In this document: positions 1-59,467 of the stretch, one piece after another
How the letters are laid out: each line of letters opens with the position of its first letter
Position numbering within the stretch: position 1 is the first letter of the stretch
Assembly: GCA_951406725.2 (NCBI GenBank)
Contig: OX597821.1
Location: forward strand, 1,984,001 to 2,048,000
Origin: Octopus vulgaris
Taxonomy: Eukaryota
Reading direction: 5' to 3'
Length of the DNA stretch: 64,000 nucleotides
Made by a program: the position numbers and the translations under genes
Notes under the pieces: model-generated
What the model saw: only the letters and a program-made list of their open reading frames with translations
The model's database searches: none
Told to the model about the DNA's origin: nothing

Positions 1-567
1 TATTTCAAATGTATACATAACTATATATATATATATATATATACATCTTTATGCACACACACACACACACATACACACGCATGTCTAAAGACAAACGCTA
101 TCTCACCCGTATGTATATTCATGGCTGCATCGCTGTACGTTCTATTACATTTCATTTAGTTTCAAGTGTCCGTTTCATGTCACACGATGATTATGTCTGA
201 TGAGTAGTTTTTCGATTTTTTCAACCCGTTTCAATGATTCGTTATATAAATAAGGTGATACATCATAATATACGCATATGTGCGTGCACACACTCGCACG
301 CGCACATACAGACAGACAAGCAGACAGATAGATACAGACACAAACATTTATAGTCTGCACTCACATTGTACATACGAACATACATCTACATAGACACAAA
401 TTGACTTAAACATGTGTGTATATATATATGTATGTATATATATATATATATATATATATATATATATATATATATATATATTGTAGGTCCCGGGTTGAGT
501 CGGGGTTAACCACAGTAAATAAGGTACTCAATACATAGCAGAGCAAAGTAATTTATTTTATAGAAGA

Positions 568-618
568 AGCCTCTACAGGACTAGAACTGTTTCATTCAGA
601 TGAAATCTTCAGGAAGCT
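568..618 (-). ncRNA. Type I hammerhead ribozyme, canonical core
   Basis: Minus strand: AGCTTC-CTGAAGA-TTTCATCTGAAT-GAAA-CAG(ttctagtc)CTG-TA-GAGGCT. Stem I has 6 bp, stem III is ACAG/CTGT, and the cleavage triplet is GUA. Confidence 0.85.
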
Positions 619-1857
619 GGCTGTCAAAATAAGTTCTGGTATTTATGCATTTAGGCAGATATAATGGGGTGGTGGGGGGACGTTTTTTGGGTAGGTTGGT
701 ATTTAGGAGATAAACAGAGCACAAGCTATTGTTCTTAGGGGAGTGGTCAAAAGGCCAGAGAGTTTTTTGAAAAGAGAAGAATCAGTGAGAAAATAAATAA
801 ATGAATAGACTAAGAGACTATATATTTATGTATGCGTATGTGTATTTATATATACATGTGTATTTGTATATAAATGTATGTGTGTATGCATGTATATTTG
901 TGTATGGATGTAAGCATATATATATATATATATATATATATATATATGGACATGTAGATTTATGTATGTGTATATATATATATGTGTATATGTGTAGATT
1001 TGTATGTACGTGTATGTATGTGTATGTATGTGCATGTGTGTATATGTGTGTATGTATATGCATGTGTGTATTTATATATGCATATATGTATTTATATGCG
1101 TATATATACTTATATATGCGTATTTGTATTTATATGCACATATGGTTTTATATGTGCATATGTGTTTATATATGCGTGTATATATTTATATGTGTGTGTT
1201 TTTGTGTACATATGTATATTTATGTATGTGTTTATATATGCATAATTATGTATATGTTTATATGTACATGGGTATATTTATGTATGTATACTTATGTGTA
1301 TTTGTATGTGTATATATATATATATGTATGCATATATATATATATATGTGTGTGTGTGTATGTAGGTGTATGTATGTATATGTATATGTATGTATATATA
1401 TATATGTGTATGTGTATATATGTATATATGTATGTATGTGTTTGTTTGTATGTATATATATGTGCGTATGTTATGTATACTTGTGTATATTCGCATGTGT
1501 ATGTATGTGTATTTGTAAGTATATTTATTTTATATGTTTTTTTCATGTATATTTATCTATTTATTCCCTCCACCTAACAAAAACACACTGCCTACCTCTT
1601 CTTGACCACCTAAAAGCAATTGTCTTCTATTTTTACCTAAAATCCCATCCCGTACGTCTGTTTCTATTCATTTATTCTATTTATTCATTTATTTATTTTC
1701 TCACTGATTCTTCTCTGGTCTTTTGACCACTCCCCTAAGAACAATAGCGTGTGCCCTGTTTTTTCTCCTAAATACCAACCTACCCAAAAAACGTCCCCCA
1801 CCATCACCCCATTATATCTGCCTAAATGCATAAATACCAGAACTTATTTTGACAGCC

Positions 1858-1908
1858 AGCTTCCTGAAAATTTCATCTGAATGAAACAGTTCTAGTCCTG
1901 TAGAGGCT
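1858..1908 (+). ncRNA. Hammerhead copy with G8->A core mutation (probably inactive)
   Basis: Identical to 568-618 except the core reads CTGAAAA instead of CTGAAGA. Confidence 0.75.
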
Positions 1909-1968
1909 CCTGCTATAAAATAAAAATAAAATATATATATATAATATATATATATATATATATATATA

Positions 1969-2373
1969 GGCGCAGGAGTGGCTGTGTGGTAAGTAGCTTG
2001 CTAACCAACCATATGGTTCTGGGTTCAGTCCCTCTGCGTGGCATCTTGGGCAAGTGTCTTCTGCTATAGCCCCGGGCCGACCAATGCCTTGTGAGTGGAT
2101 TTGGTAGACGGAAACTGAAAGAAGCCTGTCGTATATATGTATATATATATATATGTATACGTGTGTGTGTTTGTGTGTCTGTGTTTGTCCCCCTAGCATT
2201 GCTTGACAACCGATGCTGGTGTGTTTATGTCCCCGTTACTTAGCCGTTCGGCAAAAGAGACCGATAGAATAAGTACTGGGCTTACAAAAGTATAAGTCCC
2301 GGGGTCGAGTTACTCGATTAAAGGCGGTGCTCCAGCATGGCCGCAGTCATATGACTGAAACAAGTAAAAGAGT
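1969..2373 (+). mobile_element. tRNA-derived SINE family A, young full-length copy with internal (TA)n/(TG)n
   Basis: Head GGCGCAGGAGTGGCTGTGTGGTAAG...GGGTTCAGTCC has A/B-box-like motifs and the tail is GAAACAAGTAAAAGAGTA. Near-identical copies lie at 6279, 52780 and 63103. Confidence 0.9.
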
Positions 2374-2839
2374 ATATATATATATATATATATATACATA
2401 TATATATATATATATATATATATACATATATGTATATACATTGATATATATATATATATATATATCTTTATATCTCTATGTATGTGTATGCATGTATATA
2501 TGTACATACACACATACACACACACAAACTCATACACATACATATAGGTTAGCGTGGCTGCGTGGTTAAATATTTGTTTTCTTGCCACATGGTTCCAGGT
2601 TCAGTCCCACAGCGTGGTACCTTCGGCCACTGTCACGTGACTGAATTTGATTGAAGGAAACGGTAAGACGCTCGTCGTATATATATATATATATATATAT
2701 ATAAGAAAATAGTAAAGAGTGAAAAAACGACAGAAGGCTTAAATGTTAAAAAATATATATATATTTGTGTCAAAATGTCTGGAGAATATTGGAAAATTTT
2801 TTTTCCTTTCCTTAAAATGACATAATTTAAAAATTTTTA

Positions 2840-56669: not shown

Positions 56670-57385
56670 CAGTAGTTTTATTTTTATAGCGTGCTTTCAC
56701 TTCACTACCGAGCGCAGCTCTGTGTGCCTTGGGTATGTGCTGTGATTTGTTGTGATGCTCTGATGGTTATTGTATGGAAAGTGTTCTGCGTAGGATGTGT
56801 GTAGTGCCTAGTAGTGCAATTTTCTGTATGTTATATGTGTTTGTAAGTCCTGGTGTTTTTGTTATGTATTTGTCTGAATATTTTTTTATCATGCTTAATG
56901 CACCTACTATGATAGGAATTGTTTCTGTTTTCAGGTTCCACATTCTAGTTATCTCTATTTCCAGGTCTTTGTATTTTGAGAGTTTCTCCATTTCTTTTAG
57001 AGACACGTTGTCATCTGCCGGTATTGATACATCAATTAGAAAGCATTTTTTTCTTCATGATCTCTGACAACTATATCTGGTCTGTTGGCTTTAATTTCTC
57101 TATCTGTGTGTATCGGCATATCCCAGAGTATGGTTGCTTTCTCTTTTTCTGTGACCTTTTCTGGTGTGTGCCTATACCATCTTTTTTCTGTTGTTATTCC
57201 ATAATGTTGGCATAGCTTCCAATGTATGTAGGTTCCAACTCTGTCATGTCTGTGAATATATTCCTTCTTAGCCAGGACTGGGCAGCTAGAGGTAATATGA
57301 TTTATTGTTTCTTGTCCATCTCCACATATTCTGCAGTTACTTGTAATATTTCTTTTCATTACATTACATTCATTACTTTTCATTC
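56670..57385 (-). pseudogene. 5'-truncated R4/Dong-clade LINE: CCHC finger, RLE and 3' UTR between (TAA)n arrays
   Basis: CRICGDGQETINHITSSC, RHD, NRPDIVV, KYKDLEIEI, IQKIALLGTTHILRRTL*. Long (TTA)n arrays at 56545-56669 and 57386-57586. Confidence 0.92.
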
Positions 57386-57586
57386 ATTATTATTATTATT
57401 ATTATTATTATTATTATTATTATTATTATTATTATTATTATTATTATTATTATTATTATTATTGTTATTATTATTATTATTATTACTATTGTTATTATTA
57501 TTATTATTTTTATTATTATTGTTGTTATTATTATTATTATTATTATTATTATTATTATTATTATTATTATTATTATTATTATTATT

Positions 57587-57775
57587 AAAGCGGTGATCTG
57601 GCGGAATCGTTATCGTGTCGGGCAAAATACTTATCAGCATATCGTCCGTCTTTACGTTCTGAGTTCAAATGCCACTTCACCTTTCATCCTTTCGGGGTCG
57701 ATCAAATATGTACCAGTTGATCTGTGAGGTTACTATAATCAACCTATCTCTTCCTTCGAAATTGCTGGCCTTGTG
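57587..57775 (+). mobile_element. SINE C
   Basis: aaagcggtgatctggcggaatcgtta...gttctgagttcaaat...cctttcatcctttcggggtcgat. Confidence 0.8.
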
Positions 57776-58654
57776 CTTATTGTAGAATATAGGAATATTA
57801 TAAAAGTGTTTAGTGTAAATAGCAGTATTTTTGTAGGTTGAAAACACAGGCAATTCATTGAAATTTATCCCAAAGAAAGTTTAGGATGGTTATACCGCGT
57901 CCCACCCTGAGCTGACTGAATGTAGGTTGAGTAAAATGTTGAGGGAGGATTGAATGTGACACAAGAATAATATTTCTTGAAATTTGTAGCGAAGAATGAT
58001 CTCACTAACATCATATTTGTTTGATTTTGTTGCCAACTTCCATTTTTACATTCGGTGGAATAGAAGGCATACCCGTGCGTGTATTTAGATATGCAGATGT
58101 ACTTTTGTGTGAATGTTTGTGAGGGTAGGATGGAGTGTGGAGATGTACGTTTGAGATGTACGTATGTGAGGAAACATTACTCTTTCAAATGTCTTAACTG
58201 ATAGAATCTTGTTGATTTAGCGTGCGGTGGCATTCCGCCATTACTTTTTCACGTGTCATACGAAAGACAAAACGCTGTTAATAAGAATACATACATACAG
58301 ACATATATATATATATATATACATACATACTCATACATACGCACGCACACACACACACACACACACACACACACACACACACACACACACACACACACAC
58401 ACATATATATATATATATATATATGGGGGCATTATTGTAATCATTGTTACTATTATTGGATGAGAGAACAACGCATGCCATCAAAGTGACACTGGAGTAT
58501 AAATATACAAAGCCCAATATACACACTATTACTACTACTACTACTACTACTACTACTACTACTACTACTACTACTACTACTACTACTACTATTATTATTA
58601 TTATCATTATTATTATTACTATTATTATTCTTTTTTCTATTGTTATTATTTATT

Positions 58655-58836
58655 AAAGACTCGCAGATTAGTTTGGTGGGTATAGTGGAAAGTGTCAGCA
58701 GTCCACAGCCAACAGATTAAGGTGACTCTTGTTTACTGGTCATGCTTCAAGAATTCTGCGAAAAATTCTTACAGTTTCAAGTAATACTGATTTTTGTAGG
58801 TGTTCTCCCTTCATACTTGCACCAATGTTTTTAGCC
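58655..58836 (-). mobile_element. 3' end of another R4/Dong-like LINE next to a TAA tract
   Basis: HLQKSVLLETVRIFRRILEA* (stop at 58740-58742) parallels the C-terminus at 56767. Confidence 0.7.
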
Positions 58837-59268
58837 ATCTATCTCCCTATGTATGTATGTATGTATGTATGTATGTATGTATGTATGTATGTATGTATGT
58901 ATCTATCTATCTATCTATCTATCTATCTATCTATCTATCTATCTTCCCTGTCTGTCCTTTTGTCTGTCTGTCTGTCTGCCTGTCTGTCTGTCTTTCTATT
59001 GTGACAATGTAGTTGCGTGTATTTGTGAGAATGTAGTTATTTGTATTTCTTATTTTTTTAATATTTTATGTCTTTTATACTATTCATACATATTAGAGTA
59101 ATTTCCCTTTTATTCAACGTTTTTATTTTTACATAGCATCTCTCGTCAAAAATTACCGAAGGAAATGCCCCGAAGCTTTTAGCTGCGGCATTTGAAACTC
59201 TGAGTTCTATTATGACAACTTACTGATTGTCCTCTACTATATATATATATATATATATATATATATAT

Positions 59269-59467
59269 AAGCAATAATAAATCTCTGAACGATATAAACA
59301 GTCACTGCAGGACAATGTGAGGTATACTTGCCATCTCAATATGGCTAACCACTAAGGGTGGGTGTTACTGTGTGCCTAAAGCCAGCTGGAGACGATGTTC
59401 TCCTGGGGCTACAAGCTACAGTAACACCCACCCTTAGTGGTTAGCCATATTGAGATGGCTAGTATAC
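59269..59467. repeat. Tail-out inverted pair (50-bp arms 59322-59371 and 59418-59467) of a repeat also at 21300-21417 and ~36945-36990
   Basis: One mismatch between arms; flanked by (TA)n/(CA)n. Confidence 0.8.

Follow-up and report, generated by a model that had tools for sequence, protein, structure and literature searches.

Six places in a 64,000-nucleotide window of the Octopus vulgaris genome (GenBank assembly GCA_951406725.2, contig OX597821.1, positions 1,984,001 to 2,048,000 of the forward strand) carry short sequences duplicated in inverted orientation, mostly amid TA microsatellites, which raises the question of what these inserts are and how their two arms came to be joined. We labelled the elements E1-E6 and examined them by self-comparison of the window, which is 64% AT animal DNA rich in microsatellites and in short interspersed element (SINE) copies that we take to be octopus SINEs. 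At least five of the six inserts are very probably end-pieces of Penelope-like elements (PLEs) placed back-to-back in TA repeats, and target-primed reverse transcription from both ends of the target is the mechanism we consider most likely (probability about 0.55).

Inverted arms were detected at all six places (85-98% identity, with small indels), confirming the pairs described in the initial annotation. After masking of tandem repeats, the window contained 18 local inverted matches (2 kb or less), compared with none in any of ten shuffles, and eight of the 18 are E1-E6 or a relative of E4. Every element bears an outer extension on exactly one arm, 35-97 bp in length (E1 71, E2 35, E3 about 66, E4 68, E5 97 and E6 about 44 bp), which we read as the putative 'tail' of a PLE and which is proven family sequence for E2 (by sequencing-run contigs) and E6 (by a second copy). 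The arms were delimited as follows.

E1 left arm: 481..823, minus strand; 3' end facing out; tail at 481-551; core of a type I hammerhead at 612, with the cut site at 574.
E1 inter-arm TA/TG microsatellite: 824..1549, no strand; element-internal or pre-existing target, GC skew +0.69, resembling the left arm.
E1 right arm: 1550..1924, plus strand; without tail, hammerhead core at 1864 (one core mismatch), cut site at 1902; segment 1550-1669 assigned here from strand composition alone.
E1 arm alignment: 552-823 with 1670-1924, 284 of 296 columns identical, flanking TA counted in.
E2 left arm: 2704..2887, minus strand; without tail; its 5' end precedes hammerhead stem I by 8 nt, and the core, at 2872, is the U3-A8 variant.
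E2 right arm: 2890..3297, plus strand; longer on the 5' side, hammerhead-like motif 3082-3121, tail 3263-3297.
E2 arm alignment: 2697-2887 with 3074-3262, 185 of 189 identical.
Head of the SINE split by E2: 2554..2684, plus strand; body at 3407-3605, E2 sitting in the internal (TA)n of the SINE; identities to the intact copy 1968-2372 of 101/130 and 161/199.
E3 left arm: 20704..20787, minus strand; without tail, longer 5' side, whole hammerhead with core at 20771 and cut at 20742.
E3 right arm: 20785..20918, plus strand; begins within the hammerhead, tail about 20853-20918 with a bulged hairpin.
E3 arm alignment: 20699-20761 with 20790-20852, 61 of 63 identical.
E4 left arm: 41352..41536, minus strand; hammerhead core at 41515, cut at 41465, tail 41352-41419 with a bulged hairpin.
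E4 right arm: 41543..41630, plus strand; without tail, hammerhead internally deleted, terminates at (C)n(CA)n.
E4 arm alignment: 41420-41536 with 41543-41630, 75 of 88 identical, with a 29-nt gap in the right arm.
E5 left arm: 47750..48141, minus strand; longer 5' side, degenerate hammerhead core at 48048 and cut at 47997, internal TA patch 47847-47865; extension 47750-47846, assigned only from its position between TA runs.
E5 right arm: 48142..48219, plus strand; without tail, includes no hammerhead.
E5 arm alignment: 47847-47943 with 48142-48238, 91 of 97 identical, TA counted in.
E6 left arm: 59270..59371, minus strand; extension 59270-59313, outer end matching a single-arm copy at 21417 (112/124).
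E6 right arm: 59371..59467, plus strand; without tail, about 40-47 nt longer on the 5' side, no hammerhead detected.
E6 arm alignment: 59314-59371 with 59418-59475, 54 of 58 identical.

The six had also been described as bounded by (TA)n, which applies to most of their borders. The twelve outer ends lie 0, 6, 0, 0, 0, 0, 1, 21, 0, 1, 0 and 32 bp from a (TA)≥5 run, that is, within 6 bp at 10 of 12 (chance for a random non-repetitive position, 0.7% per side); the right ends of E4 and E6 instead adjoin (C)n/(CA)n, 21 and 32 bp short of the TA run. Since most tailed ends were placed at the TA border by the analyst, the 10/12 count is partly circular; free of this circularity are the outer ends of E2, which splits an older SINE copy and is delimited by family coverage, and of E6, whose end recurs in the second copy at 21417. 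E5 extends left to 47750, beyond the 47873 first assigned. The view that the six elements are unrelated is not wholly correct: the tails of E1 and E3 align with a score reached by 6 of 2000 shuffles (a pair chosen out of 45 comparisons).

Orientation was read from the hammerhead motifs. A strict type I descriptor gave 5 matches scoring at least 7 versus 0.3 per shuffled window (10 shuffles), located in both E1 arms, the left arms of E3 and E2 and a single-arm insert at 12181-12604; the four within E1-E3 all point outward. A relaxed descriptor returned 6 matches of at least 8 versus 1.35 (20 shuffles), adding the left arm of E4 and a motif in the E5 spacer (score 10.5). Thus every visible hammerhead motif, in E1-E5, has its 3' side outward, as the initial annotation had stated. 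This polarity bears on the possibility that abundant families simply inserted twice, independently and in opposite orientation, into one TA hot spot. Such a history would apply chiefly to E1, where about 730 bp of TA/TG microsatellite and 120 bp of unique DNA lie between the two arms, one of which has a 16-bp indel relative to the other. As a general account it is very unlikely: the tails face outward in all five pairs that can be oriented and inward in none, the arms of E2-E6 abut without TA in between, and contigs of the E2 family join arm directly to arm.

Three further features of the hammerhead motifs were noted. The motifs at 20771 (E3) and 12294, which are unrelated, have the same U4-to-C core change. 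In E1 (1843-1855), E3 (20782-20787) and E2 (3083-3084), hammerhead stem I is closely preceded by an AG resembling a splice acceptor; in D. virilis, the Penelope intron terminates at helix I (PMC4209133). The E6 extension contains a hammerhead-like string pointing inward, which was discounted for lack of a second core.

The layout of E1-E6 matches the published insertion unit of endonuclease-containing (EN+) PLEs with inverted pseudo-long terminal repeats (pLTRs), in agreement with the PLE origin proposed initially. An inverted 5'-truncated copy, a one-sided tail of 30-40 bp and a (TA)n bias are described for PLEs by Craig et al. 2021 (PMC8557442), where their origin is called unresolved (this and the other publications are cited for the sections consulted). 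Like the units in PMC8557442 and PMC3846280, E1-E6 show a head-to-head truncated copy, a tail at one end only (6/6), a hammerhead near the 3' end and (TA)n without a visible target-site duplication (TSD); they differ in that both arms are stumps of 60-400 bp without an open reading frame (ORF), and in extensions of 35-97 versus 30-40 bp. A type I hammerhead in sense towards the 3' end was found in E1 and E3 (strict descriptor), E4 and E5 (relaxed) and weakly in E2, with none in E6. Fixed 3' ends with variable 5' truncation were seen in the E2 family, and the tail end of E6 is shared with the copy at 21417. We therefore regard E1-E5 as, very probably, 5'-truncated 3' end modules (pLTR, type I hammerhead, optional tail) of EN+ PLEs targeting (TA)n, and E6 as probably a stump of the same kind. 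The architecture is thus already described for PLEs; the families are new members, and the mechanism is where they provide a new test ground.

The families probably belong mostly to the Hydra clade, judging by motif likeness. Insertion into (TA)n, seen here at the 10 of 12 ends, characterizes 26 of the 27 Hydra-clade families listed in PMC8557442, one of them from Octopus bimaculoides and one with an inverted 5' copy, and is not exclusive to that clade. At the protein level the clade is marked by RWK and DKT motifs and a CxCX5C linker, with CCHH absent. Hydra-type hammerheads with a 3-4 bp stem III are resembled by those of E1, E3 and E4, judged by eye without a computed alignment. Among the examples compared (Hydra-2_Amil, Hydra-1_Obim and Penelope-13_HM; PMC8557442 Files S1, S2 and S7), E3 agrees by eye with Hydra-2_aMil in the letters of stem I, of stem III and of the cut site, and a bulged hairpin lies downstream in similar form in three published Hydra-clade 3' ends; the 3' end of Hydra-1_Obim showed no match by eye to any of E1-E6. 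Truncated Schistosoma PLEs likewise carry opposite-strand hammerhead pairs, 100-700 bp apart, with a palindromic stem III and the U3-A8 core of E2, a variant reported for PLE hammerheads (PMC4209133, Cervera and De la Pena 2014); they differ from E1-E6 in host and target, and the sections consulted propose no mechanism. Recent Penelope-like activity is reported for O. vulgaris repeats, with nothing on an inverted-pair layout in the sections consulted (PMC13282606).

Several other assignments were rejected. E6 lacks a canonical hammerhead, as Naiad elements do, but six E6 motifs of 9-13 nt were absent from the consulted supplement of PMC8557442, an 8-mer gave unrelated matches only, the match of one 11-mer was to the 5' region of Naiad_Ovul, and the 3' ends of three octopus Naiads are by eye unlike E6. 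A 14-nt match of E4 to 5' coding sequence of an octopus Naiad was dismissed as coincidence. The tandem units in the consulted part of a retrozyme preprint (10.64898/2026.07.22.740005) do not fit E1-E6. ARAGORN predicted no genes in the window, and the best 150 of 369 E-value matches in Rfam comprised microRNA (miRNA) families, nearly all on microsatellites, and one viral untranslated region, with no hammerhead among them. Pattern scans of genome, viral and metagenome contig collections returned no loci, and hence no longer copy.

To compare copies, E2 was matched with contigs from 4 of 24 sequencing runs (at most 4 samples, 3 studies and three organisms, one of which may be the window's own source); part of 2704-4700 had been found in 20 of the 24 listed runs, from four organisms. 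The four runs yielded 1243, 2259, 1167 and 746 matching contigs that covered all 30 bins, tail included; the E2 family is highly repeated. Among the loose contig ends listed, (AT)n follows 3262 in 10 contigs (one run) and 3296 in 1 contig, so the family has two recurrent 3' ends, with and without the tail, each then followed by (TA)n. Also among the listed ends, other family sequence continues upstream of 2890 in 6 and 12 contigs, and the E2 spacer therefore belongs to the tailed arm, as its longer 5' portion. Each recurrent 3' end is preceded by the same 8-nt T-rich motif (3251-3262 and 3289-3300), 39 bp apart, which is a possible start signal.

The junctions between the arms differ from copy to copy. 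At least nine distinct left-to-right-arm joints were found in the E2 family (eight in the main joint table and one in a supplementary table, three further rows of which repeat main rows; joint 3005>3082 was discarded as colinear), each in 1-2 contigs, with 0-2 nt overlap or 1-21 nt of filler. The initial annotation had expected both outer ends and inner junctions to vary under twin priming; the inner junctions do, whereas the outer ends fall at the two recurrent sites. Within E2 itself, one of the differences between the arms lies at a homopolymer border that is polymorphic in the family. Seven of the nine joints are no more than 11 nt from hammerhead stem I and some 30 nt upstream of the cut site, a clustering that we hold to be weak, because five of eight rows have no known intervening sequence, joints beyond the compared stretch are invisible, and subfamilies diverge just upstream of stem I (loose ends 2878, 2879 and 3066).

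Copy-specific joints contradict the fixed internal structure expected of miniature inverted-repeat transposable elements (MITEs), and for E2 the reading as a TA-targeting DNA transposon with terminal inverted repeats and TA TSDs is already refuted. For the set as a whole, MITEs or fold-back artefacts of assembly are most improbable. The arm ends of E5, the sole arguable case of symmetric fixed termini, would be symmetric if 47750-47846 were a separate insert, E6 has no hammerhead, and the window's own junctions are absent among the listed contigs; against this stand one-sided extensions in 6/6 elements, variable junctions, single-arm copies and outward hammerheads. An assembly artefact is further opposed by the 2-15% divergence and the indels between arms, which fresh fold-back chimeras would not show, and by head-to-head junctions in short-read contigs of four runs.

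The joints also argue against a palindromic non-autonomous PLE, in which a master locus would already contain an inverted pLTR pair and its read-through transcripts would retrotranspose whole. Joint 2887>3080 is common to two runs of two organisms and seven of nine junctions fall near one site, as such a locus would predict, but nine junctions, each at a depth of 5-60 against summed depths of 10^4-10^5, and the existence of single-arm copies in the E4 and E6 families make it improbable. We propose instead that the head-to-head pair is made anew at each insertion.

Single-arm copies bear as well on the part played by the target. The window contains the following.

E6-family single-arm copy: 21287..21417, plus strand; sits between two TA runs.
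E6 diverged single-arm relative: 36860..37000, minus strand; z 7-11.
E4-family single-arm fragment: 41043..41104, minus strand; 57/62, outside (TA)n.
Single-arm hammerhead insert: 12181..12604, minus strand; core at 12294, cut at 12257, in the internal (TA)n of another SINE copy.

Inversion is therefore optional. The initial annotation had made the self-complementarity of (TA)n the cause of the paired layout, which is not supported: the copies at 12181-12604 and 21287-21417 are likewise in (TA)n with one arm each, and PMC3846280 describes the same head-to-head arrangement of pLTRs at ordinary targets that bear 8-10 bp TSDs. Self-complementarity of the target is not required for the head-to-head layout. 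Both E2 and the 12181-12604 insert landed in the (TA)n(TG)n tract found inside a SINE that is present at 1968-2372 and in many other copies.

How, then, would the pairs form? Under two-ended priming, an enzyme combining reverse transcriptase (RT) and a GIY-YIG endonuclease would cut both strands of the TA target, and each target 3'-OH would prime its own cDNA on the element RNA, one usually from an outer start site (giving the tail) and the other from an inner start site (giving none). Synthesis of both cDNAs would end prematurely, in many cases close to the 5' edge of the hammerhead, and the truncated ends would be linked by host end-joining through 0-2 nt of microhomology or short filler. 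We infer the enzyme clade, the priming from two strands and the joining step from the structure of the inserts. Arm geometry is informative here: a single cDNA that folds back and copies itself leaves one arm nested in the other, whereas in two separately primed cDNAs tail and 5' length are independent. E3 is non-nested, with the tail on the right and about 20 extra 5' nt on the left, and so is E6, with the tail on the left and 40-47 extra 5' nt on the right, as confirmed by two other copies; E1 would be non-nested if it arose in one event, judging by GC skew only. Two clear non-nested cases in six favour two primings, and two separate priming events, part of the initial suggestion, are the most economical explanation of the arms of E3 and E6; a later central deletion can mimic the pattern, and fold-back fits E2, E4 and E5 equally well.

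Fold-back is the principal competitor, possible though clearly less probable. A single primed cDNA (or an antisense RNA) of a PLE would fold back on a short palindrome and copy itself. The copied strand would then be joined to the opposite end of the target, in many cases at a TA patch within the element, and later deletion at the unstable centre would account for non-nested arms. Palindromes seen where inverted copies meet were the basis on which Arkhipova et al. (2013, PMC3846280) proposed antisense self-priming. It accords with the nested arms of E2 and E5, the symmetric centre of E4, one E2-family junction that is an almost perfect palindrome (joint 2879>3082, symmetric with a 7-nt near-palindromic centre), and the tail-less ends of E2, E3 and E5 on internal TA patches of 4-20 nt (such 4-mers occupy 1-4% of arm positions). 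Yet a further one-sided deletion would have to be assumed both for E3 (at least 20 nt) and for E6 (at least 40 nt), and the overlaps at E2 junctions among those listed are just 0-2 nt. Palindromes of 4-6 bases at the centres of E3, E4 and E5 were too short to count.

Two-ended priming also has a biochemical counterpart. In vitro, a PLE enzyme, Poseidon PAc of Anolis, cuts and extends both strands and starts reverse transcription at two sites, between which the tail lies; dimerisation is predicted for it (Frangieh et al. 2024, PMC11167929). The two start sites, which bound the tail at a stem-loop, and the AT-rich targets recall E1-E6; inverted pairs are not addressed in the sections consulted, and the PAc RT start is not homologous to the target, in contrast to the three tail-less ends here on TA patches. 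The tail-less ends of E1, E3 and E4 stop 0-5 nt short of a similar bulged hairpin, the break points of E1 and E3 align, and the hairpin at the E1 tail start folds better than shuffles (z -2.5), an arrangement that, by analogy, would fit two RT start sites around a stem-loop. Our literature search, which excluded subscription literature, found no publication stating a two-ended priming model for PLEs.

In twin priming of L1, two target 3' ends prime cDNAs on two non-overlapping parts of one RNA, and the junction shows microhomology or filler. The analogy drawn in the initial annotation breaks down in detail, since the arms of E1-E6 duplicate the same 3' segment in 6/6 and have no poly(A), and an L1-type product was rejected on this ground.

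Several points weigh against the two-ended reading or the PLE assignment beneath it. The nested arms of E2 and E5 and the symmetric arms of E4 are explained equally well by fold-back, and a one-sided deletion at a palindrome centre could also yield non-nested arms. E1 may represent two insertions. The cross-copy contig test covers the E2 family only, and the window's own E2 junction is spanned by none of the 32 contig pieces listed. The relaxed hammerhead descriptor was written after E4 and E5 had been inspected by eye, and in that scan the E2 motif scores at background level (6.0/5.0, with 6.25 chance matches of at least 6). Rfam gave no match at gathering score in the window, and the tail hairpins other than that of E1 fold no better than shuffles. 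E6 has no hammerhead in the strict or relaxed scans, so its polarity is assigned by analogy. None of E1-E6 has an RT or endonuclease ORF attached, which is why the clade was judged from motif likeness by eye.

Other repeats in the window include a 70-bp hairpin at 41150-41219, with short TA runs on either side, between the E4 relative and E4, which may be a seventh, very short pair. A palindromic 150-bp repeat in two copies beside TA runs (43823-43971 and 48792-48973) may represent either a genuine MITE or a further PLE stump. A second repeat family forms tandem and inverted clusters (24970-26010, 29600-29820, 45320-45450, 57585-57720 and 7020-7140). A broken non-LTR (long terminal repeat) retrotransposon at 55200-57260 on the minus strand, presumably akin to R4/Dong, matches Pfam RVT_1 at 55994-56443 (E 7.8e-10) and adjoins long (TAA)n runs at 57216-57600.

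The origin of PLE inverted repeats is named an open problem in PMC8557442. On balanced odds, PLE inverted pLTRs could be the genomic record of two-ended priming by a dimeric enzyme, with cDNAs that start beyond or before a conserved bulged hairpin, stop near the hammerhead 5' edge and are joined end to end. The comparison of nested with non-nested arms and the link between tail-less ends and the hairpin are applicable to any good cephalopod assembly. Stumps of this kind resemble MITEs or miRNA-like hairpins to automatic annotators, and may supply double-stranded RNA. If two-ended priming is correct, non-nested arms would reveal it from genomes and overturn the antisense self-priming proposal; the deciding data would come from octopus-like genomes, in which each family has left thousands of such stumps.

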